Part shown: piece after piece, positions 2,851-54,985 of the stretch
How the letters are laid out: each line of letters starts with the position of its first letter
Position numbering within the stretch: the stretch's first letter is position 1
Source of the DNA: Desulfurivibrio sp.
GTDB taxonomy: Bacteria; Desulfobacterota; Desulfobulbia; Desulfobulbales; SURF-16
Reading direction: 5' to 3'
DNA: 64,000 nt
Assembly: GCA_003605035.1 (NCBI GenBank)
Contig: QZKJ01000014.1
Coordinates: 15,191-79,190 of the forward strand
Made by a program: the position numbers and the translations under genes
The notes under the pieces: generated by a model
What the model was told of the DNA's origin: nothing
Database searches by the model: none
What the model saw: the letters and a program-made list of their open reading frames with translations, nothing else

Positions 2851-3078
2851 GCCAGCCGCAGCAGGGCCGAACGTTGCCACAACTGCTTAGGCTTTCTTGG
2901 CCATCTCGTTACGGCTCTTTATGCCGTTTTGACCATCCGGATGGCGACATTATTTTGTTACAGCGGCTTATTTGCCTGCCGGCAATAAAATAGATAGCTT
3001 TTTGCAGTCAGGTTGTGTAAGGTGTTTTTTGAAAGTGTGCAGTACATGTTTGTAGTAAATAAAAAATACTAAAAATTC

Positions 3079-17667: not shown

Positions 17668-17772
17668 GCAGAACTCCTGCTGTCGTGACCTGATTTCACG
17701 TTAGGCAACCACTTCTAACCGCGGCCCGTTAACGGCAAAGTGCCTGAAGTGCCCTAAAGTTAAAGGAATTGT
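17668..17772 (-). mobile_element. Partial inverted copy (right half) of the ~245-bp element at 41256 and 54623
   Basis: CAGAACTCCTGCTGTCGTGAC...CGGCAAAGTGCCTGAAGTGCCCTAAAGTTAAAGGA matches the reverse complement of the element's right half. Confidence 0.75.
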
Positions 17773-41255: not shown

Positions 41256-41575
41256 CTTCAGACAACCTGATCTCGGCAGATTTTACTTTGATGCCAGGGT
41301 TGCGATTCGAGAAGAGTGCCTAAAGTACTTAAAATGCCCTTGTGCCCTTGTGGGTACTTGTGCCCCTTGTGGGTACTTGTGCCCCTTGTGGGTACTTGTG
41401 CCCCTTGTGGGTATAAAGTACTTGAAGTTGCGGTACTATCTGAACAGATAACTCCTTTAACTTTAGGCACTTTAAGTACTTTAGCGCACTTTAGGCACTT
41501 TGCCGGTAACAGGACAGAATCCCTGATGGTGGCATAACCTATTGAAATTGCGTCACGACATCAGGAGTTCTGAAC
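41256..41575 (+). mobile_element. Non-autonomous MITE-like element (copy A) with inverted 9-mer repeat arms
   Basis: Colinear with 54623-54960. Ends CTTCAGACAACCTGA / TCAGGAGTTCTGAAC form an imperfect inverted repeat. GTGCCTAAA-type 9-mers face TTTAGGCAC-type 9-mers around a TATCTG-AA-CAGATA core. Confidence 0.8.
41339..41413 (-). repeat. Tandem array of four 19-nt units CTTGTGCCCCTTGTGGGTA (first unit 18 nt)
   Basis: Read directly. Inserted between ATGCC and TAAAG of a 9-mer repeat. Confidence 0.95.
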
Positions 41576-41632
41576 ATGGCCAGAGAAATGCTCGGCACGG
41601 CACTCATTTCAGTACCCCCTTGAGGGGTATAA

Positions 41633-41682
41633 GGAGCCGTAACGAAATTGAAAAAATAGCCATGTTTTTCCGTAACGGCTCC
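41633..41682. mobile_element. 50-bp miniature inverted-repeat element with TAA flanks
   Basis: TIR GGAGCCGTAACG / CGTAACGGCTCC (11/12 match), flanked on both sides by TAA. Confidence 0.55.
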
Positions 41683-41744
41683 TAATACTTGACAAACCGG
41701 ATTTCCCTGTTATTGAATAACGATCGAGACCTTTTCCCGCCAGC

Positions 41745-42701
41745 ATGGCAAAACAGCGGAGAACCATCGGCATGAACAAGGCATTGCTGCTCATGGCCTG
41801 CCTGCTCCTCCTGCCGGGCGCGGCAACCAAAGGGAATGCCGCCAGGCAGAGCGAAACGGGTACGGCGCCGCAGCAGGAAAGCAAAGCCCGGCCAGCGGCT
41901 AGAACCGGGGCCGCCGGCCCGGCGGAGAAGACCCTCGTCATCTGCGGCTCCGGTGACAGCCAGAATCTGCTGCGCCAGCTGGCCAAGGCCTATGAACAGT
42001 CCCATGCCGGGGTTCATCTTGACGTGCCGGATTCCATCGGCAGCGGCGGCGGCATCAAGGCCGTGGCGGCGGGCAAATGTGATCTGGGCCGGGTGGCCCG
42101 GCCATTGAAAAAAAAGGAACAGGATCTCCGGCTTGCCTATCTGCTCTTTGCCGACTCGCCGGTGGTTTTTGCGGTCAACAGCAGCGTGAGGGGAATCAGC
42201 AGCATCAGCAGCGGGCAGGTGGTCGGCATCTTCTCGGGCGCCATCACCCGCTGGAGCGAAATAGGCGGTCCCCCAGAGAAAATTTACGTGGCCAACCGGG
42301 AAAAAGGCGACTCATCCCGCACCATTATCGAAAAGCAGCTGCCGGGCTTTGCCGCAATCGACAAACCGGTGGGCCAGATCCTCTATACCACCCAGGAAAA
42401 CGTTGCCGCCATCAACCGGTACAAGCACACCATCGGCTACGCCAGCCTGTCCGAGGCCGGCAACCAGCCGAACCTGGTTCTTCTCCGCCTTGACAACGTT
42501 GCCCCGGACCGGGAAAACGTGCGCAGGAAAAGGTACAAACTTGTCGCCCCCTTTGGTCTGGTTTGGAAAGATCCGCCTGACCAGGAGGTGAAAAACTTCA
42601 TTGATTTTCTTTACAGCCCGGCGGCAGAAAAGATCATGGCTGACCATGGCGTTTTTTCAGCCTTGCGGAAACGGGAGCACCATGATTCGACATCGCCATA
42701 A
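41745..42701 (+). CDS. PstS-like periplasmic substrate-binding protein
   Basis: Signal peptide, ICGSGDS, SIGSGGGIKAV, IFSGAITRWSEIGG and NREKGDSSR. The start may be ATG 41772. Confidence 0.85.
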   Translation: MAKQRRTIGMNKALLLMACLLLLPGAATKGNAARQSETGTAPQQESKARPAARTGAAGPAEKTLVICGSGDSQNLLRQLAKAYEQSHAGVHLDVPDSIGSGGGIKAVAAGKCDLGRVARPLKKKEQDLRLAYLLFADSPVVFAVNSSVRGISSISSGQVVGIFSGAITRWSEIGGPPEKIYVANREKGDSSRTIIEKQLPGFAAIDKPVGQILYTTQENVAAINRYKHTIGYASLSEAGNQPNLVLLRLDNVAPDRENVRRKRYKLVAPFGLVWKDPPDQEVKNFIDFLYSPAAEKIMADHGVFSALRKREHHDSTSP

Positions 42702-42786
42702 TATAGCAGGCGGCAAGCCTCTCCCGGGGCAGGCTGCCGTTTTTCCGGCTCCGGCTGCCGGCCCTTTCACCATGTAGCGGTCCGCC

Positions 42787-44760
42787 ATGTTCCGTTCGCT
42801 CAAACTGACCCTGCTGCTCTCCCACACCGGCCTCATTCTGCTCACCAATCTCCTGCTGGCCAATGTTTCCTACTTTTATCTGATCAACACCCTGGAAAAC
42901 AACCAGAAACAGCATCTGGCCTTCATTACCCGGCATGCGGTGCAAAGCGTCAACGGCTATCTCAAAAACAAGGCAGACCTGCTGGAACGGATTGCCGACG
43001 GTCCGGAGGTGATCAATTACGCCATCAACTTCCGGGAGGCGGCCCTTGCCTCCTACCTGGCCGGATATCACAGCAGTTTTCCCAATCTCAGCTTCATCAA
43101 CCAGCAAGGCATCGAAGAACTGCGGGTAACCGACGGCGAGATTGCCCAGAATGTGGCTGATTACCATGACAGCCCTTTTTTCAGCAAATGCCTGGCCCAT
43201 CCGAACCAGGTGCTCATCCTGCCGCAGGAACCGGCGCTGCAGGCCAGGGAGCCGATGCTGCAGCTGGCCATTGCCAAGCATCAATATTTTGAGGACCGCT
43301 TTGCCGGGCTGCTGCTGGCCACCCTGCCCTACCAGAAAATTGCCGCAAGCCTGACTGATATCAGATTCAGCGCCGCAGGCTATCTGCTGCTAAGCGACGG
43401 CAACGATACCATCATCACCATTACCTACCCAAGCTCCCGGCCCCAGGCGGAGCCGATAAAAATCAGCCGCAGCCAGGATGAAGAGGGGCTGCCCGCCTTT
43501 CTCAGCGCCAAAGACCCGCAGCGTATCCCATCCTTTCAACGCACCACCGTGCGAGGCATTGATTCCCTGGTCGCCGCCGCCTTCATGCCCGAGCTGCAGT
43601 GGACGGTCATGACCGTGCTGCCCCATGCCGAATTCATGCAGCAGGTGAAAAAGCTGCGGATCAGCTTTATTATCCTGTTCGTCGTCTTCTTCGTGCTGGC
43701 CGGCATTCTCTCCTATCTCCTGGCCAACGGCATCACCAGGCCGCTCGCCCGGCTCACCCGGGCGGCCAAGGCCATTGCCCAGGGAAATCTCAATGAAATC
43801 ATCGCCAGCAATTCACAAGACGAGATCGGCAAACTGATCGGCTCCTTCAACACCATGACCAGGAATCTGCAGGAGACCACCATTTCCCGGGATTACTTCA
43901 ACACCATTCTCAGCTCCATGCAGGAGAGCCTGATTGTCCTCGGCCGGGACGGCAGGATCGAGAGCATCAACAACTCCACCATTGTCATGCTCGGTTACGA
44001 GAAACAGGAGCTGACCGGCAAACCGCTGGAATTCATCCTGAAAAAAGACAAGGCCGTGGCAAACTGCCCTTTCAGCAACCTGGATGAAGGAGAGATCCTC
44101 AGGGAATGCGAACTGATCTATCTGACCAAGTGGGGCCGGGAGATCCCGGTCCACTTCAGCGCTTCGCCCATGAAGAACAGCCATGGCGAGATTTACGGCA
44201 TTGTCTGCCTGGCCATTAATATCTCCAGACGCAAAAAAATGGAAACGGCCCTGCGGCAGAGCGAGGCCAAACTGCGGGAGATCGCCATCACCGATGAGCT
44301 GACCTCTTTGCTCAACCGGCGCGGCTTCATGACCATGGCCGCCAAACAGCTGCAGATGGCCAGACGCCAGGAAGGCCATGTCTTCCTGCTGTATGCCGAC
44401 GTGGACAATCTGAAATGGGTCAATGACCACCTGGGCCACCATGCCGGCGATCAGGTGCTGACCGAGACGGCGGACCTGCTGCGCGCCACCTTCAGGGACT
44501 CGGATACCATCGCCCGGCTGGGCGGCGATGAATTTGCCGTGCTGCTCATTGATCCGGCCGACGAAAAATCCCTCATCAGCCGTCTGGAGCTGAACCTGCA
44601 GGCCAGAAACAGCCAGGAGCAGCGCAGCTACGAGCTGTCGCTCAGCATCGGCGTGGTCCGCTATGATCCGGAACATCCCAGTTCCATTGAAGAGCTGATG
44701 AACCGGGCGGACAACCTGATGTACGAATGCAAGCTGCAGAAAAAGCAGAGGCGGCGCTGA
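42787..44760 (+). CDS. Cache-HAMP-PAS diguanylate cyclase
   Basis: Two TM segments, HAMP (ITRPLARL...DEIGKLIGSFNTM), PAS, RDSD I-site and RLGGDEF. Confidence 0.93.
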   Translation: MFRSLKLTLLLSHTGLILLTNLLLANVSYFYLINTLENNQKQHLAFITRHAVQSVNGYLKNKADLLERIADGPEVINYAINFREAALASYLAGYHSSFPNLSFINQQGIEELRVTDGEIAQNVADYHDSPFFSKCLAHPNQVLILPQEPALQAREPMLQLAIAKHQYFEDRFAGLLLATLPYQKIAASLTDIRFSAAGYLLLSDGNDTIITITYPSSRPQAEPIKISRSQDEEGLPAFLSAKDPQRIPSFQRTTVRGIDSLVAAAFMPELQWTVMTVLPHAEFMQQVKKLRISFIILFVVFFVLAGILSYLLANGITRPLARLTRAAKAIAQGNLNEIIASNSQDEIGKLIGSFNTMTRNLQETTISRDYFNTILSSMQESLIVLGRDGRIESINNSTIVMLGYEKQELTGKPLEFILKKDKAVANCPFSNLDEGEILRECELIYLTKWGREIPVHFSASPMKNSHGEIYGIVCLAINISRRKKMETALRQSEAKLREIAITDELTSLLNRRGFMTMAAKQLQMARRQEGHVFLLYADVDNLKWVNDHLGHHAGDQVLTETADLLRATFRDSDTIARLGGDEFAVLLIDPADEKSLISRLELNLQARNSQEQRSYELSLSIGVVRYDPEHPSSIEELMNRADNLMYECKLQKKQRRR

Positions 44761-44780
44761 CCGGCTGACGCCGCGACCCG

Positions 44781-47700
44781 TTACAGCTGATGGATCTGGA
44801 TATGCGCCTGGCCCGCCAGTTGCCGGGCATCCTCCACCACCTGCCGGTGGTGGGTAAAGAGAATCACCTGGGTTTTTTCCGCCAGGCCGGCCAGCACCCT
44901 GATGGTGGCCTGCACCCGCTCGTCATCAAAGTTGATGAGAATGTCATCCACGATAAAGGGCATGGTTTCCCCGCGCTTAAGCCGCCATTCCAGGGTGGCC
45001 AGCCGCAGGGCCAGGTAGAGCTGATCACGGGTGCCGGAACTCATCCCCTGCACATACACACCCCGGGCCTCGTCAGGTCGCAGGCCGGCCAGCACCGGAT
45101 GACCGTTGTCCGCCACATCGGTGCGCAGGCCGGCAAAGGAGCCCATGGTCAATTCCCGGAAATAGGCTGAGGCCAGCTTGAGAATCGGGTCCTGATGCTG
45201 CTGCCGGTAGCGTTCGATTTCCCGCTCCAGCACCTTGGCCGCCAGCCGCACCCGCACATAGCGCTCAGCCAGCCGCCGCATCCTGGCCAGCACCTGCTCG
45301 GCTTTTTCCTCTGCCTCGGCGGCCAGCGGGCTGCCGTCCATTTTCGCCAGTTCGTTCTTTTCCCGGCCGATTACCTCAAAGAGTTCATCAATCTGCGGAC
45401 TCAGCTCTTCGTTGATCTCTCTTGCCAGGACATCGATCTCTCCCTGCAGGTCTGTTGAGTGGAGACCCCGGGTCTCCCGGCTGATTTCCTCCAGGGACAG
45501 GCCCTCGGCAATTTCAGCCAAGGTCGCCTCGACCTCAACGAGCATCTTCTTGATTTCCCGGCATTCAGCAGACCTGGCAATCGCCCTGTCCAGCTCCTCG
45601 CTGTCGGCACAGCCGGCCAGCCGCAGAAACTCATCCAGCTGGCCATGCAGGCTCTGCAAGGTTTCCTCGCCATAACGGATCTCCGCCGCCAGATTTTCCA
45701 TGTCCTCGCCATATTTGGCCAGCAGGGTCCTGTCCTCATTCGCCTTACCCAGCATATCCTGCAGCCTGGTCACCGCCTCTTCCAGCGGCGCCCTGGCCAG
45801 TTCCGGGGCGACCAGCTGCAGGAGATTTCTCACCTCCTGCTCATATTGCCCGGCATCCCGGTCAATACCGTCAATGCGCTTGCGGTATCCTTCGGCCTCC
45901 TTCAGCTTGGCCAGGCAGTTCTGCAGATCATCGAGCATCGCATTGACATCAGCCGGCTCCACCCTGCCGCCTGCCGCAGCCAGCCCCTGCAGGGCGTCCT
46001 GCCATCTGCCCTGCCACTCCAGCAAGGCCGCGTCCGCCGACTGCAGATCCAGGACGGCAGCGGCCAGGCCCGCCAGCAGCTCCTGCCTTTTCTCGGTAAG
46101 CCTGGCCCGACTGAGCTGACTTTTCTCGTTTTCCTCCGCTACTCTTTCCCCGCAAAGAATGACCGGCTCCAGTTCGTCAGAGGAGAAATCCCGGCCCTCG
46201 CCCAAGCCCTGCAGCTCCCTGAGCAGACCCTCTCGCAACCTCAGCCGCAGCCCTTTTTTTTCGTCAAGCTCCTGTTGTTTTTTGCCGATCTCCTTTACCC
46301 TGGCCCGAATGGCTGAAAATTCATGGAGCCAGGCTGCCATTTCCGCAGGAGAAAGGGGCTCGATGCCGCTTTGCCGCCAAACCTCCTGCCAGGCAACGGC
46401 AAAGTCCTGCCCCTGCCCGGCAAGTTCCTGCCGGCGGCAACAGATTTCCTGTCTTGCCGCCTCCAGAGCTTCCAGGCGGGCTCTACTGGCGGCAAAACCG
46501 GCTGCCCGGTCCGCCTCCCGGCGCAACCGGTCGGCCAGCCTGTCGGAATCGGACACCTGTTTTTCATAGGCATCCGGCAACGGGAGCGACGGGTCATACT
46601 CGCGGCTTTGCCGGTCAACATCCTCGCCGGCAAGCCACTGCCGGCGCAGCAGACGCCAGCCTTTGTCCCGCTTGCCGCGGACCTGGGCAAGTTCCTCTTC
46701 GGTGGGGACTTCTCCTCCGTATTCAATCCTTTTTTTTTCGGCAAGCGCCTGTTGCCATTCCCTTTCCGCGTCCCGCTCATCTCTGGCCAGCTGACGCCTG
46801 CTCTCCTCCAGTTGCTGATAACGACCGGCAAAGTCCTTGACCGTTTCCGGCAGGGGCAAGGGCAGATCAACAACCCGGGACAGCTCACCCGACCAGCGGC
46901 CCAGCCGGGCGAGATCAGCCGCGTTCTCCCTGGCATCACCTGCGATCTCGCGGATTTTTGCCCTTATCTCCCCATCGATGGCGCCGGCTTTTCTAGCCAG
47001 CTTCACCGTTTGCCCCAACCCACCCATCTCCCTGGCCTCCGGCAACCGGGCCAGGGCCTTGGCAACAGCCTCGAGCTGCCGTTCCGCCTCTGCGGCCTGT
47101 TTTTTTGCCTGGCTCACCTGCAGCTCCAGGGTATGGTGACTGTTGATCAGATCCTGGATTGTTTTTTTCCTGAGCAGCACCGGCCGCAGGCTCTCCACCT
47201 CGGTCAGCGGCAGATCCGGCCGGATGGGCTTGAGCAGCTCCGCCGCCTCCATGCGCTCGCTGGTCCGCATTCCTTCAAGTCTTGCGCGGTCCCGCGTCCC
47301 TTTGCGGTATTCACCCAGTCGCTGGTGCAGATCAGCTATGGCCCCGCTGTGCTCAACCAGGAGCTGATTGACCGCTATGCCTTGCTTCCGGGTGACGAGC
47401 AGGCCCAGACTGGTGCGGGCCTTCTGCAGCTGCAGCCCGGTTGCCCGGAGCTGCTGCTCTACCTCCCGCTTCTTGTCGGCCAGATCCAGGGGCAACATCC
47501 TTACCTCACCCAGTTCCTGCAGCTGCTGCAGCAGCTTGGCCCGCCTGGCGAGAAAAGGAATGGCCCGTTTCAGCCGCTCAAGATGATGCCGCTGCCGCTC
47601 CCTGGACTCGCGCAGCTGCTGCAGCCGCTGCCGTTCCTGCTCGGCGCGGACGAGCTGATTGCGGTGCTCCTGCCACTGCCGGCTGGAAAGGCTGACCTGC

Positions 47701-48290
47701 CTGACCGTGCGCTGCAGATCCCGGTGTTCGGCAATAGCCATATTGATCAGTTGTTTTGAGCCCCGCGCCTTGAACAGTTCATCCGCCTCGGCCTCCAGGG
47801 AGCCGAGGATGGCCCGCAGGGAGGAGATGCCGGCGCCGGCGGCAAAAAGGGCCTGCCCCACCTCGCCCTTCTGGGCCAGGATATCCTCGCCGCCCTGCAC
47901 CAGCACGCCATGATCAATGCCGTACAGGGAATCAAACAGCCCCTGGTCAATGCCGGGCAGAAAGGCGGACAGGGCGCCATCGTCTACGGGATTACCATGG
48001 CTGTCAAGCATATCCGCCTTGCGGCGCTTGCGGCGCTGAAAGCAGATCTGCCGGCCGTCATCCGCCTGCAGGCAGCCCGCCACCAGCAGATTCTCGTTGG
48101 CATGCTGGAAACTGTCCGCGGTCCGTTCCGGAAAGCCGTAGAGCAGGGCCTTGAGGGCGCGCAGGGAACTGCTTTTGCCCGCCTCGTTGGGGCCATAGAT
48201 GACATGCAGGCCAGGCCGGTCGCCGTGAAACTCCAGGATTTTGTCCGTGAAAGGACCGAAGGCCTTCAACTCGAGACGCCTGATCCTCAT
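44781..48290 (-). CDS. yhaN: YhaN-family SMC/Rad50-like ATPase (AAA_27)
   Basis: Walker A GPNEAGKS, a long coiled coil, signature MSSGTRDQLYLALRLA, Walker B FIVDDILINFDD and ILFTHH. Confidence 0.92.
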   Translation of the reverse strand: MRIRRLELKAFGPFTDKILEFHGDRPGLHVIYGPNEAGKSSSLRALKALLYGFPERTADSFQHANENLLVAGCLQADDGRQICFQRRKRRKADMLDSHGNPVDDGALSAFLPGIDQGLFDSLYGIDHGVLVQGGEDILAQKGEVGQALFAAGAGISSLRAILGSLEAEADELFKARGSKQLINMAIAEHRDLQRTVRQVSLSSRQWQEHRNQLVRAEQERQRLQQLRESRERQRHHLERLKRAIPFLARRAKLLQQLQELGEVRMLPLDLADKKREVEQQLRATGLQLQKARTSLGLLVTRKQGIAVNQLLVEHSGAIADLHQRLGEYRKGTRDRARLEGMRTSERMEAAELLKPIRPDLPLTEVESLRPVLLRKKTIQDLINSHHTLELQVSQAKKQAAEAERQLEAVAKALARLPEAREMGGLGQTVKLARKAGAIDGEIRAKIREIAGDARENAADLARLGRWSGELSRVVDLPLPLPETVKDFAGRYQQLEESRRQLARDERDAEREWQQALAEKKRIEYGGEVPTEEELAQVRGKRDKGWRLLRRQWLAGEDVDRQSREYDPSLPLPDAYEKQVSDSDRLADRLRREADRAAGFAASRARLEALEAARQEICCRRQELAGQGQDFAVAWQEVWRQSGIEPLSPAEMAAWLHEFSAIRARVKEIGKKQQELDEKKGLRLRLREGLLRELQGLGEGRDFSSDELEPVILCGERVAEENEKSQLSRARLTEKRQELLAGLAAAVLDLQSADAALLEWQGRWQDALQGLAAAGGRVEPADVNAMLDDLQNCLAKLKEAEGYRKRIDGIDRDAGQYEQEVRNLLQLVAPELARAPLEEAVTRLQDMLGKANEDRTLLAKYGEDMENLAAEIRYGEETLQSLHGQLDEFLRLAGCADSEELDRAIARSAECREIKKMLVEVEATLAEIAEGLSLEEISRETRGLHSTDLQGEIDVLAREINEELSPQIDELFEVIGREKNELAKMDGSPLAAEAEEKAEQVLARMRRLAERYVRVRLAAKVLEREIERYRQQHQDPILKLASAYFRELTMGSFAGLRTDVADNGHPVLAGLRPDEARGVYVQGMSSGTRDQLYLALRLATLEWRLKRGETMPFIVDDILINFDDERVQATIRVLAGLAEKTQVILFTHHRQVVEDARQLAGQAHIQIHQL

Positions 48291-49546
48291 CCCTGGCCTC
48301 CATTCTGCAGCAGTCTGGCTGCCAGCAGTTCCCTGACCTCGGCCCGCAGGGTCTCCGTCTGGCCGGGGCTGTCGGCCAGCAAAGGTTCGTCACCCTCGAA
48401 GAGTTCAGCGGGCAGCCGGCTTTTAAAGGCCGGCAGCTCCGGCACCAGGGCAAAGAGATCCTCAGCGCCAAGCGGCAGCTCATCGAGAAAGCGGAGCAGC
48501 CCGGCCAGGGCGTTATCCTGGCCGACCAGCTCGGCCAGCTCGGTCCGGCGCCGGGTCTGCAGCAGCACTTTTTCCAGCCATACCTCCCCGCTGGCCGCGG
48601 CCACGCCGCGCAACTCATCAATCAGCCGGGGCCAGCGGTCAATAAGCTCGGCATGCACCGGACAGGCGCCGGCCAGGATCAGCCGCATGGCGAGCGGCCT
48701 GCCCTCCCCGGCCGCCCGGCCGGCCTCAAGGGCCTGGCGCACCTGGCCGAAAACCGCCTCAATCGTCTGGCAGGCGGACAGATCAACCGGACACAGCAGC
48801 CAGCGCAGCACATCAAATTCCCGCTGCTGCACCGTCGTCACCCGGCTTTCCTCCACGGTGACCAGGGTCGCCCCCTTGGCCCCGCTTTCCCGGATATGAC
48901 GGCCCTGGAGATTGCCCGGAAAGATGATCCACGGGTCGCGGGCCACCACCTCCTGCTGGTGCACATGACCAAGGGCCCAGTAATCATAACCCATGACGCG
49001 CAGATCATCCACCGTACAGGGGGCATAGGGCTCATGGCCGACACGGCCGCTGAGCGCGGTATGCAGCAGGCCGATGTTGAAATAACCGGCCTGTCGGGGC
49101 GGGTAGCCCAGGGCCAGGTTTTCCCTGACGTCCCGCGCGGCATAGCTCTGGCCATGGACGGCCACCCGGAGATCGTCCAGCAGTTTTGTCTCCGCCTTTC
49201 GTGGGGAAAAGAGGCTGACATTATCCGGCAGGGGTAATGCCCTGGTGGTATTACTTGCCGCATCATGATTGCCGGCCACGATGAACACCCTGATGCCGGC
49301 CCGCTGCAGACGGCCCATGCGGTTGACCAGGAAAAGACCGGTATGGTAATCCTTCCAGTCGCCGTCATAGAGATCACCGGCAATGAGCAGAAAATCGACC
49401 TCCTCGTCAACGGCGAAATCAATCAGCTGGTCAAAGGCCCGGCGCGAGGCCCCGCGGATCTCCTCCAGCGGGGCGTCCTCATAGGACTCCAGCCCCTTCA
49501 AGGGGCTGTCGAGGTGAATATCAGCGGTATGGAGAAATTTGAACAT
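48287..49546 (-). CDS. yhaO: YhaO-family Mre11/SbcD-like metallophosphoesterase nuclease
   Basis: ADIHLD, AGDLYD, GNHD, GLLHT, ALGHVH and PGNLQGRH. Overlaps the yhaN start by 4 nt. Confidence 0.93.
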   Translation of the reverse strand: MFKFLHTADIHLDSPLKGLESYEDAPLEEIRGASRRAFDQLIDFAVDEEVDFLLIAGDLYDGDWKDYHTGLFLVNRMGRLQRAGIRVFIVAGNHDAASNTTRALPLPDNVSLFSPRKAETKLLDDLRVAVHGQSYAARDVRENLALGYPPRQAGYFNIGLLHTALSGRVGHEPYAPCTVDDLRVMGYDYWALGHVHQQEVVARDPWIIFPGNLQGRHIRESGAKGATLVTVEESRVTTVQQREFDVLRWLLCPVDLSACQTIEAVFGQVRQALEAGRAAGEGRPLAMRLILAGACPVHAELIDRWPRLIDELRGVAAASGEVWLEKVLLQTRRRTELAELVGQDNALAGLLRFLDELPLGAEDLFALVPELPAFKSRLPAELFEGDEPLLADSPGQTETLRAEVRELLAARLLQNGGQG

Positions 49547-49558
49547 GGCGTTTTATGG

Positions 49559-49718
49559 GTGAAAAGTGAGAAGTAAGAAGTGAAAGGTGAAAAGAAACAA
49601 TGCCCCGGCAGGGATGCTGCGTAAAGGTTTTTCTTCTCACTCCTCACTCCTTACTCCTCACTTTTTCTTGCTTTTCCTTTCACTTCTCACTTCTCACTTC
49701 TTACTTTTCACTTTTCAC
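49559..49718. repeat. Inverted arrays of 7-mer repeats (GTGARAA / TYYTYAC)
   Basis: Five units on the left (GTGAAAA GTGAGAA GTAAGAA GTGAAAG GTGAAAA), then blocks of four and six complementary units (TTCTCAC, TCCTCAC, TTTTCAC...). Confidence 0.85.
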
Positions 49719-49722
49719 TTAC

Positions 49723-52700
49723 TCATAACAGATCCAGATCGCTGGCCCTGGCCCATTCCACCAGCCGGTTGAATTCCAGCTTCAGCTGTTCCAGCCCTTT
49801 GGGCGTCTCATTCATTCTGCCTTCCCGGGCAAGTCTGCCCAGCTCGGCCCCGGCTTCGGAAAAGGCATTGGCGCACACCGTGGCCGCGGTGCCCTTGAGG
49901 GAATGGCATACCTTTCTGAGCCTCGCCTCGTCCCCGGCGGCGATAGCCGCCTCCGCCTCCGCCAGCCACTGGGGACCGCTCACCTGCAGCAGGTGCCTGA
50001 GCAACTTCCTGGCCAGCTCCACCTTGCCGTTGCAGCTGTCATAGAGAAAGGCATCGTAATCAATGATCTCCGCTCTCTTATTCTTCGGGGTGAGGGTGAC
50101 GCTCCTCATGGCCAGGTCGACGCCCAGCACCTTCTCCATTTCCTGCCGCAGGATCCGCACGTCAATGGGCTTGGAGACATAACCGTCCATGCCGGCATCC
50201 AGACAACGCTTGCGGTCAATGGTCATGGCATGGGCGGTCAGGGCGATGACCGGAATATGTCCGCCGCTCAGCTTCTCCTGCTGACGGATCCGGGCAATCG
50301 TCGCAAAGCCATCCATTTCCGGCATCTGCACGTCCATTAAAATGACATGAAAGCAGTCATTATGCAAGGCATCGAGAACCTGTCTGCCATTTTCCGCCGT
50401 GGTCACCCGCCATCCCTGGGCCCGGATCATCTCCACCGCCAGTACCCGGTTGATCTCCTCATCTTCGGCCAGCAGCACGTTGAGGGTGTGCAGACTTTCC
50501 CTGATGGAATGCCGGGTCACCAGGGGCAGCTGTCCGCTGTCCGCCGGCCTACCCAGCACCATGCGCAGGGCCTCGAGCAGTTCGGTCCTGCTTACCGGCT
50601 TAAGCAGAAAGGAGACAATGCCGGCCTCCCGGCAGCGCTGCCCGTCCCCGCGCTGGCTGGCGGCAGTCAGCATCATGATCCTGGCGTCGCCGGCAATCTG
50701 CTGCAGTTCGCGGGCCACGGCAAAGGGCTGATCAGGCTCTGGCAGGGCATCGAGAATGATGGCGTGGAACCGTTTCTCAGCCGCCATCCGCAAAGCATCC
50801 TCGGCAGAACCCGCCAGCAGCACATCCTTTACCCATTCACTCAGCATCTCCTTTAACATGAAACGCTCCGAGGCCTCGCCGGCCACCACCAGGAAGGACT
50901 TGCCCTGCAGGGCGCCGAGCGGCAGCGCTTCAAACGTCCTGATTTGTCTGGCCTGGGTCTGCAGCAGCAGGGTGAAATGAAAGGTGGTCCCCACCCCTGC
51001 CTGACTTTCCAGCCATATTTCGCCACCCATCATGGCAATCAGTTCAGCGCAGATGGTCAGTCCCAGTCCGGCGCCCCCATGCCTGCGCGAGAAGGAACCG
51101 TCGACCTGGCTGAAGGCCTGGAAAATCCTCTCCTGCATCTCCGGGGCAATGCCGATGCCGGTATCCGCCACCGTAACATGCAGGGCCATATCCCTCTCCC
51201 CCTTCTCCCGCCTGATCCGGTCAGGGCATTCATCCGCCGTGGCCTGCCTTACCTTCACCACCACCTTGCCGCTGCTGGTGAATTTAATGGCGTTGCTCAC
51301 CAGGTTGACCAGAATCTGCCGCAGCCGGCCCGGGTCGCCGATGAAACCGTCAATCAGCGCCTGCTCGATCTCATAGGTAAGCTGCAGCCCCTTGTCATTT
51401 GCCTTGAAGGCCAGGATATTCAACGAGTTGCCCACCACATCAAACAGGCTGAAGGGGATATGTTCAATTTCCAGGGAGCCGGACTCGATCTTGGAAAAAT
51501 CAAGCACCTCGTTGACCACGTCGAGCAGCCGGTTGGCGGAGGTTTTCACCATCTCCAGAAAGCGGCGCTGGTCCGAAGAGAGTTGTGTCCCCAGCACCAG
51601 ATCGGTCATGCCCATGATGCCGTTCAAGGGGGTGCGGATTTCATGGCTCATATTGGCCAGGAATTCGCTTTTGACCGCATTGGCCGCCTCCGCCTCCTCC
51701 TTGGCCTGACGCAGAATCTTCTCAGCCTGTACCATATCGCTGATATCATGGAAATCTTCGATGATGCCGACAAACTCGCCCTGCTCATTGCGGAGCGGGG
51801 CCGCCCTGAGCCGGCAGGTGATCAGCTTGCCGTCAGCCCGCAGCTTTTCCACCGCAAAGGCAGCCCATTCCCTGCCATCCTGCAGCAACAACACAGGGCA
51901 CTGCCCGGTGTGGCAGAACGGACCGGGAAAGGTCACGAAGCATTTGCTGTTCTCCAGGGTCTCCTTTTGCCCCCCGGCCAGCTCAGCAAAGACGGCATTA
52001 ACCCTTATCACATCGAAATTCTTATCAATTATTCGCATGCCGTTGCCGGCTGTCTGAAAAACCTGATCCAGCAGCCGGTGGGAATTCTTCAACTCGCTGA
52101 TCATGGCGCCGCGTTCCTCGATGCGTTTTTCGCAGATCCTGATGATTCTGCGCGAAAAAAGAACGAAGAAAACCGCCAGGGACAGACTGGTCAGCACAAT
52201 AACCAGCCAGGTGCGGTGCAGGAGTTTCTGCATCCTGCCGCTTTCCGCCTCCAGATATCTGCCGGCCCGGTCGGTCAGATTCTGCTGGGCGTTGCGGACG
52301 ATGATAAAATCCTGGAAGATGTGGTCCCGCAGCCGGTCATGCTCCTGCTCCAGCTCGATGCGCTGCCGGTGGAAATCATAAAAGCCGCCGCGGCCCGGGG
52401 CCACGATGCCGCCTGAGGGTCCCTGCTGATAATCCTTGCCCCAGAAGGCGGCAACGAAGCGGTCGAGTTGCCCGGCAATCTCCGTCAATTCGCCGGGCAG
52501 CTGGCGGGTGAGAAGATGCAGGTTGCCGGCAATCTGCGCCGAGAGCTTCTGGATGTAATTGATATGAATCTGATCCAGGTGGTTCCGGTCCCGCTCCACC
52601 GCGATCAGTTCACAGAGCAGGGCAAGGGTCTCCACATCATGCCGCATCCTGGCCAGGGTGACCAGCAACTCATGCTTGGCCGTCCGCCCCTGCTGGCGGA

Positions 52701-53241
52701 GCAATCCCGGCGAAGACCCGGCAGCCTTTTCCCGCTGTTGTTCCTCAAGGGCGGCAAGCCCCAGTCCGATCCTGGCAAGCAGCTCGGGCGGGGCCAGGAT
52801 TACCCGGGCATTGGCGGCAAGCAGCTGATTATAACGGTGGCGCCAGGCAACGCTCTGCCGCCGGTTTTCCTCCAGCCGCTGCAAGGCATTGCCGAAGTCT
52901 GCAAAAAATCCGCCGGTCCGGGTCGCCTCGGCCAGCTGCCGGTATCTGCCCAGCAAGTCCGGGAAATCCTGCTGCTGCATGCCGTCCATGCCCGGCTCAC
53001 CTTTTTCCAGCAGCTGATCGATAAGCGCCCGCTCCTGCAGCATAACCCGGTTGACATCCTTTTCCAGGCCAAGCATTTCCTGCTGCAGGGAACGGTAAAG
53101 ATCCCTTTCAGCATTCATTTTCATGAAGGACCACCAGTTGAAGGCCATGATAAACAGGCCGATGCCCAGGCCGAACAGGACGACATTTCTGAGCAAACGC
53201 GGGGAGTTATCCTGGGGGAGCGAGCTTGGGGAAAAATTCAT
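49723..53241 (-). CDS. Membrane hybrid histidine kinase (PAS, HisKA, HATPase, pseudo-REC, REC, Hpt)
   Basis: Two TM segments with a large helical periplasmic region, SHEIRTPLNG and HGGAGLGL. The first receiver lacks the acidic pair (LVVAGE). Second receiver ILMDVQMP and Hpt HSLKG. Confidence 0.92.
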   Translation of the reverse strand: MNFSPSSLPQDNSPRLLRNVVLFGLGIGLFIMAFNWWSFMKMNAERDLYRSLQQEMLGLEKDVNRVMLQERALIDQLLEKGEPGMDGMQQQDFPDLLGRYRQLAEATRTGGFFADFGNALQRLEENRRQSVAWRHRYNQLLAANARVILAPPELLARIGLGLAALEEQQREKAAGSSPGLLRQQGRTAKHELLVTLARMRHDVETLALLCELIAVERDRNHLDQIHINYIQKLSAQIAGNLHLLTRQLPGELTEIAGQLDRFVAAFWGKDYQQGPSGGIVAPGRGGFYDFHRQRIELEQEHDRLRDHIFQDFIIVRNAQQNLTDRAGRYLEAESGRMQKLLHRTWLVIVLTSLSLAVFFVLFSRRIIRICEKRIEERGAMISELKNSHRLLDQVFQTAGNGMRIIDKNFDVIRVNAVFAELAGGQKETLENSKCFVTFPGPFCHTGQCPVLLLQDGREWAAFAVEKLRADGKLITCRLRAAPLRNEQGEFVGIIEDFHDISDMVQAEKILRQAKEEAEAANAVKSEFLANMSHEIRTPLNGIMGMTDLVLGTQLSSDQRRFLEMVKTSANRLLDVVNEVLDFSKIESGSLEIEHIPFSLFDVVGNSLNILAFKANDKGLQLTYEIEQALIDGFIGDPGRLRQILVNLVSNAIKFTSSGKVVVKVRQATADECPDRIRREKGERDMALHVTVADTGIGIAPEMQERIFQAFSQVDGSFSRRHGGAGLGLTICAELIAMMGGEIWLESQAGVGTTFHFTLLLQTQARQIRTFEALPLGALQGKSFLVVAGEASERFMLKEMLSEWVKDVLLAGSAEDALRMAAEKRFHAIILDALPEPDQPFAVARELQQIAGDARIMMLTAASQRGDGQRCREAGIVSFLLKPVSRTELLEALRMVLGRPADSGQLPLVTRHSIRESLHTLNVLLAEDEEINRVLAVEMIRAQGWRVTTAENGRQVLDALHNDCFHVILMDVQMPEMDGFATIARIRQQEKLSGGHIPVIALTAHAMTIDRKRCLDAGMDGYVSKPIDVRILRQEMEKVLGVDLAMRSVTLTPKNKRAEIIDYDAFLYDSCNGKVELARKLLRHLLQVSGPQWLAEAEAAIAAGDEARLRKVCHSLKGTAATVCANAFSEAGAELGRLAREGRMNETPKGLEQLKLEFNRLVEWARASDLDLL

Positions 53242-53377
53242 GAATTTAATCTATAGCAATTGCTATCATTGGTAAAGCGATAAAAAAACCGTTGCGGAAT
53301 TTGCCTTGCTCTGCGCCGGTTTTACCAATAGAATTACAGAAGTTACTCATCTTCGCTCAGGCAAGGGATTTTCATTT

Positions 53378-54511
53378 ATGCACGACAACAGGAGCTCCAC
53401 CCCTCTCTCCAGGGAAAACAGCGGGAACCGCCTCAAAAGGTTCATGCTTGTTTTTCTGCCGGCCATTCTGCTCCTCGCCTCTCTTTCCGTCGTTTTCTAC
53501 CGGCAGGAATCAACCGCCAGAGAGCAACTGCTGCGCGAGAACGAAATGTTGCTGCTGGAAAGCCAGCTGGAATCATTGCAGGGTCCCCTCAAAGCCGTGG
53601 TAGGCGACCTGAAAGTGCTGGCCGGCCAGCAGACGCTGCAGGCCTTTCTTGACCTGGGGACGGCGGATTCCCTTGCCGTGCTGGCCGCCGACCTGCTCGC
53701 CTTCTCCACCCACCGCCGGATCTACGACCGGATCCGCTTCATTGACCGGCAGGGCATGGAAATCATCCGGATCAACTACAATGCCGGCGTCCCCGGCCGT
53801 GTCCCTCAGGACGAGCTGCAGTACGCCGGAAACCGGGACTATTTCGTCAACAGCGCCCGGCTGAAGGCCGGCGACTTCTCCATGTCCCCCCTGACGCTGA
53901 GCAACGAGCAGGGCAGAATCACCCAGCCGCCCACCCCGGTGATGACCTGCGGCATTGCCGTGTTCGACCGGGCCGGTCAGCAGCGCGGCGTCATCATCCT
54001 GACCTGTCTTGCCGACCGCCTGCTGCAGCCCCTCAAAAAACTGTCCCTGGAAAACCGGCGGACCATCTATCTTGTCAACCGGCAGGGCTACTTTCTCCTT
54101 GGTCCCACCCCCCAGGCGGAATGGGGTTTTCTCTACCCGGACCGGAAAAACCAGACCTTCCAGGCCCGCTTCCCCACTGCCTGGGAAAGCATCGCGGCAG
54201 CAGGAAAAGGCCATATCAGCGGCGAGGCAGGTCTTTTCACCTATCTGACCTTCTACCCGCAGCTGTGCGTTCTGGAGCCGGCCAGGGCCTTCCTCAATGC
54301 CGACGGGCCATGCGGCTGTTATACAGGCCAGAAGGAGGAATATTACTGGAAGTTCGTCTCCCTGGTGCCGGCCGCCAGCCTGCATGACAGCTCCGCCTTT
54401 CCCCTGGCCAGGAATCTGCTTTATCTGAACACCCTTTTCGTGGTGCTCTTAGCCGTCGCCGCCTGGCTGCCGGCCGGGACGGCAGCCAGGGGCAACACGG
54501 ACAAAACGTGA
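53378..54511 (+). CDS. Cache-domain membrane protein without a cytoplasmic output domain
   Basis: TM, dCache-like region (YDRIRFIDRQGMEIIR, RDYF, YLVNRQGYFLL), second TM, then a stop ~15 aa later. Start estimated at ATG 53378. Confidence 0.75.
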   Translation: MHDNRSSTPLSRENSGNRLKRFMLVFLPAILLLASLSVVFYRQESTAREQLLRENEMLLLESQLESLQGPLKAVVGDLKVLAGQQTLQAFLDLGTADSLAVLAADLLAFSTHRRIYDRIRFIDRQGMEIIRINYNAGVPGRVPQDELQYAGNRDYFVNSARLKAGDFSMSPLTLSNEQGRITQPPTPVMTCGIAVFDRAGQQRGVIILTCLADRLLQPLKKLSLENRRTIYLVNRQGYFLLGPTPQAEWGFLYPDRKNQTFQARFPTAWESIAAAGKGHISGEAGLFTYLTFYPQLCVLEPARAFLNADGPCGCYTGQKEEYYWKFVSLVPAASLHDSSAFPLARNLLYLNTLFVVLLAVAAWLPAGTAARGNTDKT

Positions 54512-54622
54512 CCGGCATGTCGGGTGACACCGGGCGGGATGGAAAAAGCGGATGACGCCTGACCAGGGCCGAACAGGGGGAGCCAGGCAGGCGGCTTTTT
54601 AAAGGGATTGTTTGGCAGACGA

Positions 54623-54960
54623 CTTCAGACAACCTGAACTCGACAAGTTTTGTCGTGATACCATACTCGGAGATCGAGCAGTGTGCCTAAAGTACTTGAA
54701 ATGCCTAAAGTGCCTAAAGTTGCGGTACTATCTGATCAGATAACTCCTTTAACTTTATACCCGCAAGGGGCACAAGTACCCGCAAGGGGCACAAGTACCC
54801 GCAAGGGGCACAAGTACCCGCAAGGGGCACAAGTACCCGCAAGGGGCACAAGGGCACTTTAAGTACTTAGGCACTTTAGGCACTTTGCCGGTATCAGGCC
54901 AGAATCCGGAGTTGTGTCATAACTTATTGAAATTGCGTCACGACATCAGGAGTTCTGAAC
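54623..54960 (+). mobile_element. Non-autonomous MITE-like element (copy B)
   Basis: Same ends, 9-mer arms and core as 41256-41575. Confidence 0.8.
54758..54852 (+). repeat. Tandem array of five identical 19-nt units TACCCGCAAGGGGCACAAG
   Basis: Read directly. Inserted between CTTTA and GGCAC. Confidence 0.95.
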
Positions 54961-54985
54961 TTGAAATGACAAGGGAGATGAAGAT

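Follow-up and report, generated by a model that had tools for sequence, protein, structure and literature searches.

How does a tandem array of a 19-nt hairpin come to lie inside one arm of a repeated element, with exact boundaries and without duplication of its target? The question is raised by two copies, A and B, of a non-coding, multi-copy element of 320-338 nt in the genome of a Desulfurivibrio sp. The window, that is the whole stretch of DNA analysed here, comprises 64,000 nt (contig QZKJ01000014.1, positions 15,191 to 79,190; G000:C5:15191-79190 in our numbering) of the source genome G000, which consists of 118 contigs and is 93.6% complete. Our answer, which we hold to be probable, if only just, is that the 19-nt unit is a mini-hairpin resembling the repetitive extragenic palindromic (REP) sequences, that it is a precise secondary invader of other dispersed repeats and that its arrays grow locally afterwards. 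The unit has precise boundaries, is missing from matching empty sites, is nested in unrelated repeats, has a parallel in a 27-nt unit and varies in copy number, and its host copies in the window have arrived recently.

Copy A of the host element (41256..41575, plus strand) is a mosaic repeat with inverted-repeat-like ends (TTCAGA..CCTGAT..TCG), two arms of 9-mers and a centre at 41427-41461. Copy B (54623..54960, plus strand) is colinear with it; counted column by column, the two are about 76% alike, and the centre of each contains a short palindrome. On direct reading, the 9-mer arms of A and B are mutually inverted, with GTGCCTAAA on the left and ACTTTAGGC on the right. Array A (41339..41413, minus strand) is placed in the left arm and comprises four head-to-tail units, all with the loop ACAA. 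Three of these are exact 19-mers, starting at 41357, 41376 and 41395, and the edge unit (41339-41356) has 18 nt with one C missing. Array B (54758..54852, plus strand) is found in the right arm and consists of five identical, exact 19-nt units with the loop GCAA. These arrays had been described in the same arms, numbers and orientations by the sequence-only reading of this DNA, and direct reading, a pattern scan and Tandem Repeats Finder (TRF) all confirmed them. The 19-mer pattern gave 8 matches in the window, where 0.03 were expected from shuffled sequence.

On the unit strand, both arrays read CTTTA^unit...unit^GGCA, exactly between two 9-mers and with zero target duplication. Each copy also shows the vacant site of the other's array: the right 9-mer arm of A (41460..41501, plus strand) has the B-type site ACTTTA^GGCA between 41465 and 41466, and the left 9-mer arm of B (54683..54720, plus strand) has the A-type site GCC^TAAAG between 54705 and 54706. 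The junction without duplication and the reciprocal empty sites thus stand as first described. When A and B were folded as single-stranded DNA, the left arm paired with the right arm and the array was located at the inner end of the stem. The unit itself can fold as proposed, but the hairpin is weak, with -2.2 to -3.3 kcal/mol as DNA and z-scores from -0.9 to -3.9.

The source genome contains 19 unit matches (up to 2 mismatches) at 7 loci with 1-6 units each, and in addition a 17-nt form at C54 and a copy truncated within the unit at C4:58527-58649. Every unit of this genome is inside the host element, at the same junction and beside the innermost 9-mers. Most are in the A-type arm, with B and the truncated copy in the opposite one. 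The unit was also found in five of the eight other genomes of the genus, with the junction kept (YTTTA^GGYA). The site was then surveyed without presupposing the unit, by taking whatever content lies between TTTA and GGYAYTTNAAGTA with a gap of 10-30 nt in the nine genus genomes. All 23 single inserts belonged to the 19-nt-unit family; 13 were perfect, 6 had one substitution and 4 were deleted or rearranged. The loop base of the 19 inserts with full length was T in 11, G in 5, A in 2 and C in 1, and the remaining 18 positions were near-invariant. In one species, G006, all 22 matches to the site pattern were without the unit. One insert (G008:C95) has lost the stretch between the GGCAC of the unit and the GGCAC of the flank. 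Since loss is imprecise here, the precise empty sites look ancestral. The empty sites, including the 22 of G006, support the claim of a precise, site-specific and duplication-free insertion.

It had been proposed that each array was written in one event as a concatemer of a single template, with an excised circle copied by rolling-circle synthesis or with the template reverse-transcribed iteratively, in the manner of a telomerase, at a nicked target. Such an event would account for the five identical units of B, for the three identical units and one edge variant of A, and for the fact that the two arrays differ in the loop base only. A rolling-circle-like amplification of excised circles of REPs and bacterial interspersed mosaic elements (BIMEs) is also among the proposals made for TnpA-REP in the relevant part of PMC3333891. 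The 23 single units at the same site speak against it, and so do arrays of mixed or block-wise composition. Uniformity holds for A (all ACAA) and B (all GCAA), but it is not a rule: at G000:C88, three units of the GCAA type, in a 20-nt register, precede three of the ACAA type, whose register is 19 nt, the loop bases at G003:C151 are A, T, A and A, and other arrays of the relatives mix A and T. The 20-nt register is frequent in doublets and repeats the flanking A along with the unit, which is not expected from a 19-nt template. A noncoding RNA that could serve as the template was not found, as the source genome has no unit outside the arrays at up to 4 mismatches. The sole RVT_1 match in this genome is a fragment of a group II intron reverse transcriptase (RT)/maturase (C89:1-728, L270), with which contig C89 begins; an element fragment is 1.2 kb away. 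Among the genus genomes, the presence of RT does not follow that of the unit; it is present in the unit-less G007 and missing in the unit-less G006. Writing from one template is therefore unsupported, and we consider it improbable. Because single units are common, arrays are mixed, edge variants occur and the 20-nt register is found, array growth is best explained by local duplication.

We then asked what is known of the host. Pieces of it were detected by BLAST with A and B at 38 loci of the source genome. Its parts also occur apart from each other, since the two ends are joined without arms at C14:2518-2644 and C20:27458-27551, and the 9-mer arms and the centre occur without ends at C16 and C20:13788; the host is therefore a mosaic. 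A third, partial copy in the window (17669..17765, minus strand; G000:C5:32859-32955) has one end and part of one arm and is without the unit. The flanks of the 8 copies checked (A, B and six others) showed no target duplication, no gene was found between paired element ends, and an autonomous partner sharing the ends was not found. At the locus orthologous to that of A the element is missing in G003, G005 and G007, and at that of B it is missing in G005 and G008. Among public sequencing runs, the best share of the sampled words from this stretch was 0.21. Four runs were examined and showed repeats of relatives; in a contig of run X1 with flanks matching the window, 215 other letters replace 54476-54970 and element B is gone. 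Since the orthologous loci of other species in the genus are without the element, A and B are lineage-specific arrivals, and both arrived recently at their loci.

Some further observations concern the host element itself. In the unit-less G006, many near-identical copies are found at contig ends (e.g. C25:14-100, C38:21-63 and C42:29-115), as if the element had been amplified recently and its copies broke the assembly. In the source genome, one copy is split between the end of contig C63 (27009-27164) and the start of C2 (1-174). The two contigs have a common stretch of at least 90 nt, inverted, between the left and right halves of the element, which looks like an insertion sequence with long inverted ends inside the element. 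Pairs of 9-mers of the host-element type were found in 18 of 61 relatives, sometimes as long arrays. Unbroken arrays of at least 10 GTGCCTAAA 9-mers occur at G025:C34:190595-190720 and G044:C72:24252-24341, in other genera or families of the order, so that the 9-mer is a repeat class in its own right, beyond its role in the arms.

The unit could then be an ancestral part of this element, without mobility of its own, that was moved between the arms by inversion, gene conversion or palindrome-templated repair. As the arms are mutually inverted, copying from arm to arm would be mechanically easy; one copy in G008 (L101) has one unit in each arm, and in the source genome the unit always accompanies the element. 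However, the two units of L101 are different variants, and the 22 sites of G006 are all without the unit. Without direct repeats at its flanks, a 19-nt stretch would be unlikely to be lost precisely, and at G008:C95, the only deletion observed, the loss is imprecise. The unit is moreover present outside the 9-mer context in other families of the same order, and the identical 19-mer is found in unrelated repeats of other phyla. Taken together, an ancestral origin within the element appears very improbable. A simple inversion between the arms was considered separately and is ruled out because the centre of B keeps the orientation of that of A, which a single inversion cannot yield.

The occurrence of the unit outside the genus was examined by an exact scan for the 19-mer, with a free loop base, in one genome per species (185,579 species, 596 Gb). 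The scan returned 102 stretches, and clusters were taken from the best 80 of these. For 18 fixed bases over 596 Gb, our arithmetic predicts about 17 chance matches, and about a dozen isolated matches in scattered taxa look like chance. Among the best 80, at least 27 stretches were from Methylococcales (14 in one complete Methylobacter chromosome, 4 in M. marinus, 1 in M. luteus, 4 in uncultured Methylobacter, and others), at least 21 from metagenome-assembled genomes (MAGs) of the Desulfobulbia type, at least 9 from one Pseudomonadota MAG, at least 8 from one Ruminococcus MAG and at least 2 from two Woesearchaeota MAGs. In each cluster the unit splits a palindromic repeat of that genome's own, with empty versions alongside, and these hosts are unrelated to the 9-mer element.

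The Methylobacter host is a palindrome with a GTAG tag, whose loop contains the unit; where two such palindromes form an inverted pair, both often carry it. The Methylobacter genome G061 has 31 unit matches, and its host-palindrome loop was empty in 47 and filled in 33 cases; in M. marinus (G065), 105 were empty and 67 filled. The fillers consist of TA, CCC, a loop of 3-5 bases, GGG or GGGG, and CACAAG, and are present singly or repeated head to tail two or three times. In M. marinus, a certain doublet is found many times inside its host palindrome, and since it is identical each time it was copied along with the palindrome. The unit of the Pseudomonadota MAG splits the two-base loop of a REP. 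A RAYT gene of 155 aa has one such unit-bearing REP immediately upstream, and the remaining REPs that flank this gene are empty. Two families resembling miniature inverted-repeat transposable elements (MITEs) have the unit at their centre in the Ruminococcus MAG, and one copy has an additional, precise 17-nt relative of the unit that is absent from its paralogues. The Woesearchaeota contig shows a repeated motif in both states, with and without the unit. In two other families of the window's order, the unit occurs in intergenic palindromes without 9-mers, including one array of at least 5 units. The base preceding the unit is A in 11 of 13 contexts, which otherwise share nothing. The TTA target that had been proposed from the window is valid for the Desulfobulbia-type contexts only; what the others have in common is a position in the loop or at the centre of a palindrome, in most cases preceded by an A.

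At one locus (L009, G044:C48:5173-5191 and the next 25 nt), the 19-mer runs on, in head-to-tail order, into a longer hairpin that shares its ends (TACCCTG..CAGGGTGCAAAAG), which suggests that the unit family has more length variants. When metagenomes were scanned for the doublet, only 7 stretches were obtained, from the Desulfobulbia-type element, from REP contexts of the Methylobacter type and from one other known context. A link to phages or plasmids was not detected, with one chance-level match in viral contigs, none in phage records and one weak match in a Streptomyces plasmid. Most of the carriers are MAGs, and the cases of Woesearchaeota and Ruminococcus could be affected by mis-binning. 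This doubt does not extend to the complete Methylobacter chromosome, and it applies much less to the draft isolate assemblies. An adapter or assembly artefact was also considered and is ruled out by the variable loop base, by the conservation of the site across species and by the presence of the unit in complete isolate genomes.

Because the exact module with the same boundaries is found in about a dozen unrelated hosts that have matching empty sites, we conclude that a discrete piece of DNA was inserted precisely. For the same reason, slippage of the flanking sequence and inheritance within one element are ruled out. The claim that the unit does not derive from flanking DNA holds in so far as it is an independent module in unrelated repeats, but the unit is not wholly unlike its flank in the window: its tail-to-head junction GGCAC-AAGTAC resembles the GGCAC-TTT-AAGTAC of the flanking 9-mers.

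The same data bear on a third possibility, that the module is kept by a selected function, as a protein-binding site, an RNA hairpin or a local regulator, and spreads by hitch-hiking and rare illegitimate recombination, its identity across phyla reflecting constraint and occasional gene transfer. A constraint would fit the 18 near-invariant positions next to a free loop base, hitch-hiking is what the recurrent doublet of M. marinus shows, and a regulatory role would suit A and B, which both sit just upstream of genes. Illegitimate recombination, however, would not give identical boundaries in about a dozen unrelated contexts. Neither a common neighbour gene nor an orientation rule was seen, and the hairpin is weak. 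A search of the whole window against Rfam found zero families at the gathering score, and at the host element only miRNA-type matches of chance level. We regard maintenance by selection as unlikely, albeit the most serious of the three alternatives.

A parallel to the 19-nt unit is provided by a second repeat family, R113, of about 113 nt, which abuts copy A (41573..41685, plus strand) and has dozens of copies per genome across the genus. Its copy in the window carries a single 27-nt hairpin unit (41603..41629, plus strand) in the site CGGCA^TAAGGAGCC, and another R113-type site in the window (2908..2926, minus strand) is in the empty state, CGGCA^TAAAGAGCC. The site, CGGCA^TAA(G/A)GAGCC, is placed in the loop of a small hairpin (ACGGC/GCCGT). 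When gaps of 0-30 nt were surveyed, the site was either empty or filled with exactly the 27-nt unit, plus one 7-nt remnant; at six places in the source genome it was filled doubly or triply, head to tail. The numbers of filled and empty sites were 6 and 12 in G000, 3 and 11 in G001, 4 and 12 in G002, 2 and 8 in G003, 0 and 8 in G006, 3 and 10 in G007, and 16 and 12 in G008. Both states were found in each of the two R113 subfamilies. On the CTTG strand, the 19-mer and the 27-mer have the common core CCCC-TTG(A/N)-GGG(G)-TA, and both are found at GC(C/A)^TAA(A/G)G. Of 201 genomes sampled from the order, 74 contain the core of the 27-mer; they represent 37 of 67 genera, and the copy number reaches 209 per genome.

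How might such a unit move? Units recur in palindrome loops or, in A and B, where the arm-arm stem ends on its inner side, and these locations point to single-stranded targets. We infer that a trans-acting strand-transfer enzyme of the HUH/Y1 type brings the unit in via single-stranded DNA and that the arrays arise after entry and not during it; the HUH/Y1 enzymes have the closest known chemistry for the entry step. The mobile piece would be a REP-like module of 17-20 nt with the family consensus TA-CCC-loop-GGG(G)-CACAAG. It would enter precisely and without duplication where DNA is single-stranded, in the loop or at the stem/loop junction of a larger palindrome. In the genus, entry would occur where the innermost 9-mers meet, in either arm of the MITE-like mosaic element (GTGCC^TAAAG on the CTTG strand). 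After entry, the array could lengthen or shorten locally by slippage, unequal exchange or repeated strand transfer, and the units would be carried passively when the host repeat spreads.

Several observations weigh against the proposal of a precise invader with local array growth. The perfect homogeneity of B (5 of 5 units) is also compatible with a single concatemer event. The strand of the unit relative to the host hairpin varies among contexts, and the targeting of loops is a pattern and not a rule of known basis. The unit has neither the GTAG nor the CGTC tag of the described REPs, and its own hairpin has the low stability given above. No enzyme was tied to the unit by co-occurrence: Y1_Tnp, Y2_Tnp, RVT_1 and TIRYT were tested, and none tracks the unit or the 9-mer repeats. 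Genes for Y1_Tnp are present in all nine genus genomes, including three that are unit-less. At none of the four Y1 loci of the source genome was a unit found, and one of these loci is near an element copy. The Ruminococcus and Woesearchaeota MAGs, possibly incomplete, yielded no Y1, and Y2_Tnp is absent from the complete Methylobacter genome. TIRYT-like genes occur in 46 of the 61 relatives whether or not the repeats are present, the 9-mer pairs occurring in 18.

The search for an enzyme covered more than these counts. The sequence-only reading had stated that the enzyme is not in the window, and this was borne out by a Y1 search and a gene survey. It had also suggested that a Y1/HUH or RT gene might track the unit; such a gene was looked for and none tracks it. 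When 1714 open reading frames from 69 unit loci in five lineages were compared all against all, no family was common to the unit neighbourhoods across lineages. None of the Y1 hits of the source genome has an E value better than 3e-15, and a C-terminal helix-turn-helix (HTH) domain is present in both that were tested. Strong hits of the IS200-type TnpA were obtained in the unit-less G004 and G007. Around 26 Y1 loci in five hairpin-rich relatives, a similar hairpin was nearby at 3. A RAYT of G062 has its own REPs on its flanks, and the unit is merely contained in the loop of one of them. In the complete Methylobacter genome, the GTAG repeat that flanks the 189-aa RAYT is not the one that hosts the unit. 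None of the four Y1 hits in this Methylobacter genome, which has about 30 units, is a long Y1 of the TIRYT kind. Long Y1 genes of this kind are present in the source genome at C116:693-1679, C63:25557-26543 and C9:687-1271, and the first two were confirmed as Y1_Tnp with Bac_DnaA_C, a DnaA-type HTH. Just upstream of most of nine TIRYT-type genes of the genus, the motif GGGGTCA(A/G) was observed, often doubled, and several have an inverted copy at the stop codon. Arrays of GGGGTCA(A/G) also occur at G000:C18:34237-34572.

The genes flanking A and B are ordinary chromosomal genes for signalling and transport (hybrid histidine kinases, a PBP-like protein and a GGDEF protein). Between the two copies, at 49559-49725, the window contains intergenic tandem arrays of 7-mers (GTGAAAA, CTCACTC and TCACTTC). 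Arrays of the CTCACTT, GACCAGT and AACGTTC types are dispersed throughout the source genome (231 TRF rows with periods of 14-45).

If the module is independently mobile, it would rank with the smallest known mobile DNAs and provide a clean case of one repeat family parasitising another. Its 18 fixed positions would then be a direct read-out of the recognition by an enzyme acting on single-stranded DNA, and thereby a handle on how REP-like sequences spread. Its exact presence in Desulfobulbia, in Methylococcales and in MAGs of Pseudomonadota, Firmicutes and Woesearchaeota raises the question of how 19 nt cross such distances. Practically, the modules break assemblies, and they place arrays of variable length just upstream of genes, here those for signalling and transport. 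We put forward tentatively, with more doubt than belief, that these sequences may form a distinct class of mobile DNA, single hairpins of 17-27 nt that would be moved in trans by a single-strand strand-transferase of their own. They would have spread between bacterial phyla and possibly archaea, living as hyperparasites in the loops of other repeats (REPs, MITEs and 9-mer mosaics) and reiterated head to tail.

Among the known systems, the templated ones, telomerase-like or retroelement, are the most distant, as the source genome has no template outside the arrays at up to 4 mismatches and no RT co-occurs with the unit. The host element, in contrast to the unit, resembles the MITEs in its terminal inverted repeats (TTCAGAC.ACCTGAT.TCG), its small size and its presence or absence at orthologous loci. 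It differs from them in that the 8 copies checked are without target duplication and that no autonomous insertion sequence with the same ends was found. Being a mosaic whose parts also occur separately, it is akin in spirit to the BIMEs.

In members of the IS200/IS605 family, the two subterminal hairpins differ from each other and the target is a fixed tetra- or pentanucleotide. Like these elements, the unit inserts without duplication, and hairpin recognition and single-stranded targets are features of the family. It differs from them in having one hairpin instead of two subterminal ones. Its site is constant in the genus (YTTTA^GGYA), but across contexts only the preceding A is shared, in 11 of 13. 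The source genome has no IS200-type TnpA, and its best Y1 hits are of the long, subclass-2 kind. As a separate observation, IS200 copies in related genera (L241, L246 and L251 in G074; L242 in G085) have one to three CCCC..GGGG hairpins between the tnpA stop codon and the right-end hairpin, which differ between copies and may be further members of the mini-hairpin family.

The long Y1 proteins lead to the TIRYT/TIRtron system. A Y1_Tnp domain with a C-terminal HTH defines subclass 2.1, or TIRYT, for which a GGGGWSAS motif is described in the pertinent parts of PMC6006769 and PMC3733652, in agreement with the motif and its inverted copy at the genes of the genus. The unit contains GGGGCACAAG, which is close to GGGGTCAAG. 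The DnaA-type domain binds 9-bp repeats in DnaA, according to the portion of PMC6006769 dealing with it, and the host element is built of 9-mers. On this analogy, a TIRYT as the mover of the host element would be an attractive idea. The counts, however, show no association (TIRYT-like genes in 46 of 61 relatives, 9-mer pairs in 18), and one such gene is near an element copy.

The closest likeness is to REPs and BIMEs. The unit too is a short extragenic hairpin with an unpaired tag at one end, is both dispersed and clustered (19 matches at 7 loci in the source genome and 31 in G061), and is inserted without target duplication. REPs nested within other palindromes and head-to-tail REP dimers are on record among the cases in PMC3733652. 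TnpA-REP of E. coli cleaves at CC^T, for example at TGCC^TGAT, and performs strand transfer in vitro, and the models given in the corresponding part of PMC3333891 have excised circles re-inserted or amplified in tandem. The target of the unit, GTGCC^TAAAG, resembles this cleavage site, as far as the latter is described there, which is a lead and not a test. The unit has just 17-20 nt and a stem of 3-6 bp, compared with stems of 5-13 bp in the REPs covered by that portion of PMC3733652. Its tag is CTTGTG/CACAAG and neither GTAG nor CGTC, its arrays are head to tail with zero spacing, and its sequence hardly differs between phyla, in contrast to the REP families, which are described as specific to lineages. 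A REPtron has a single-copy RAYT flanked by the same repeat, which was not found for the unit. Text searches of the literature for the unit and its parts returned nothing relevant, and the REP lists supplementary to PMC3733652 and PMC6006769 could hold the family under another name. In conclusion, we file the unit with the REP-like small palindromic repeats, among which it is unusual in its size of 17-27 nt, its arrays with zero spacing, its life inside other repeats and its near-identity across phyla.

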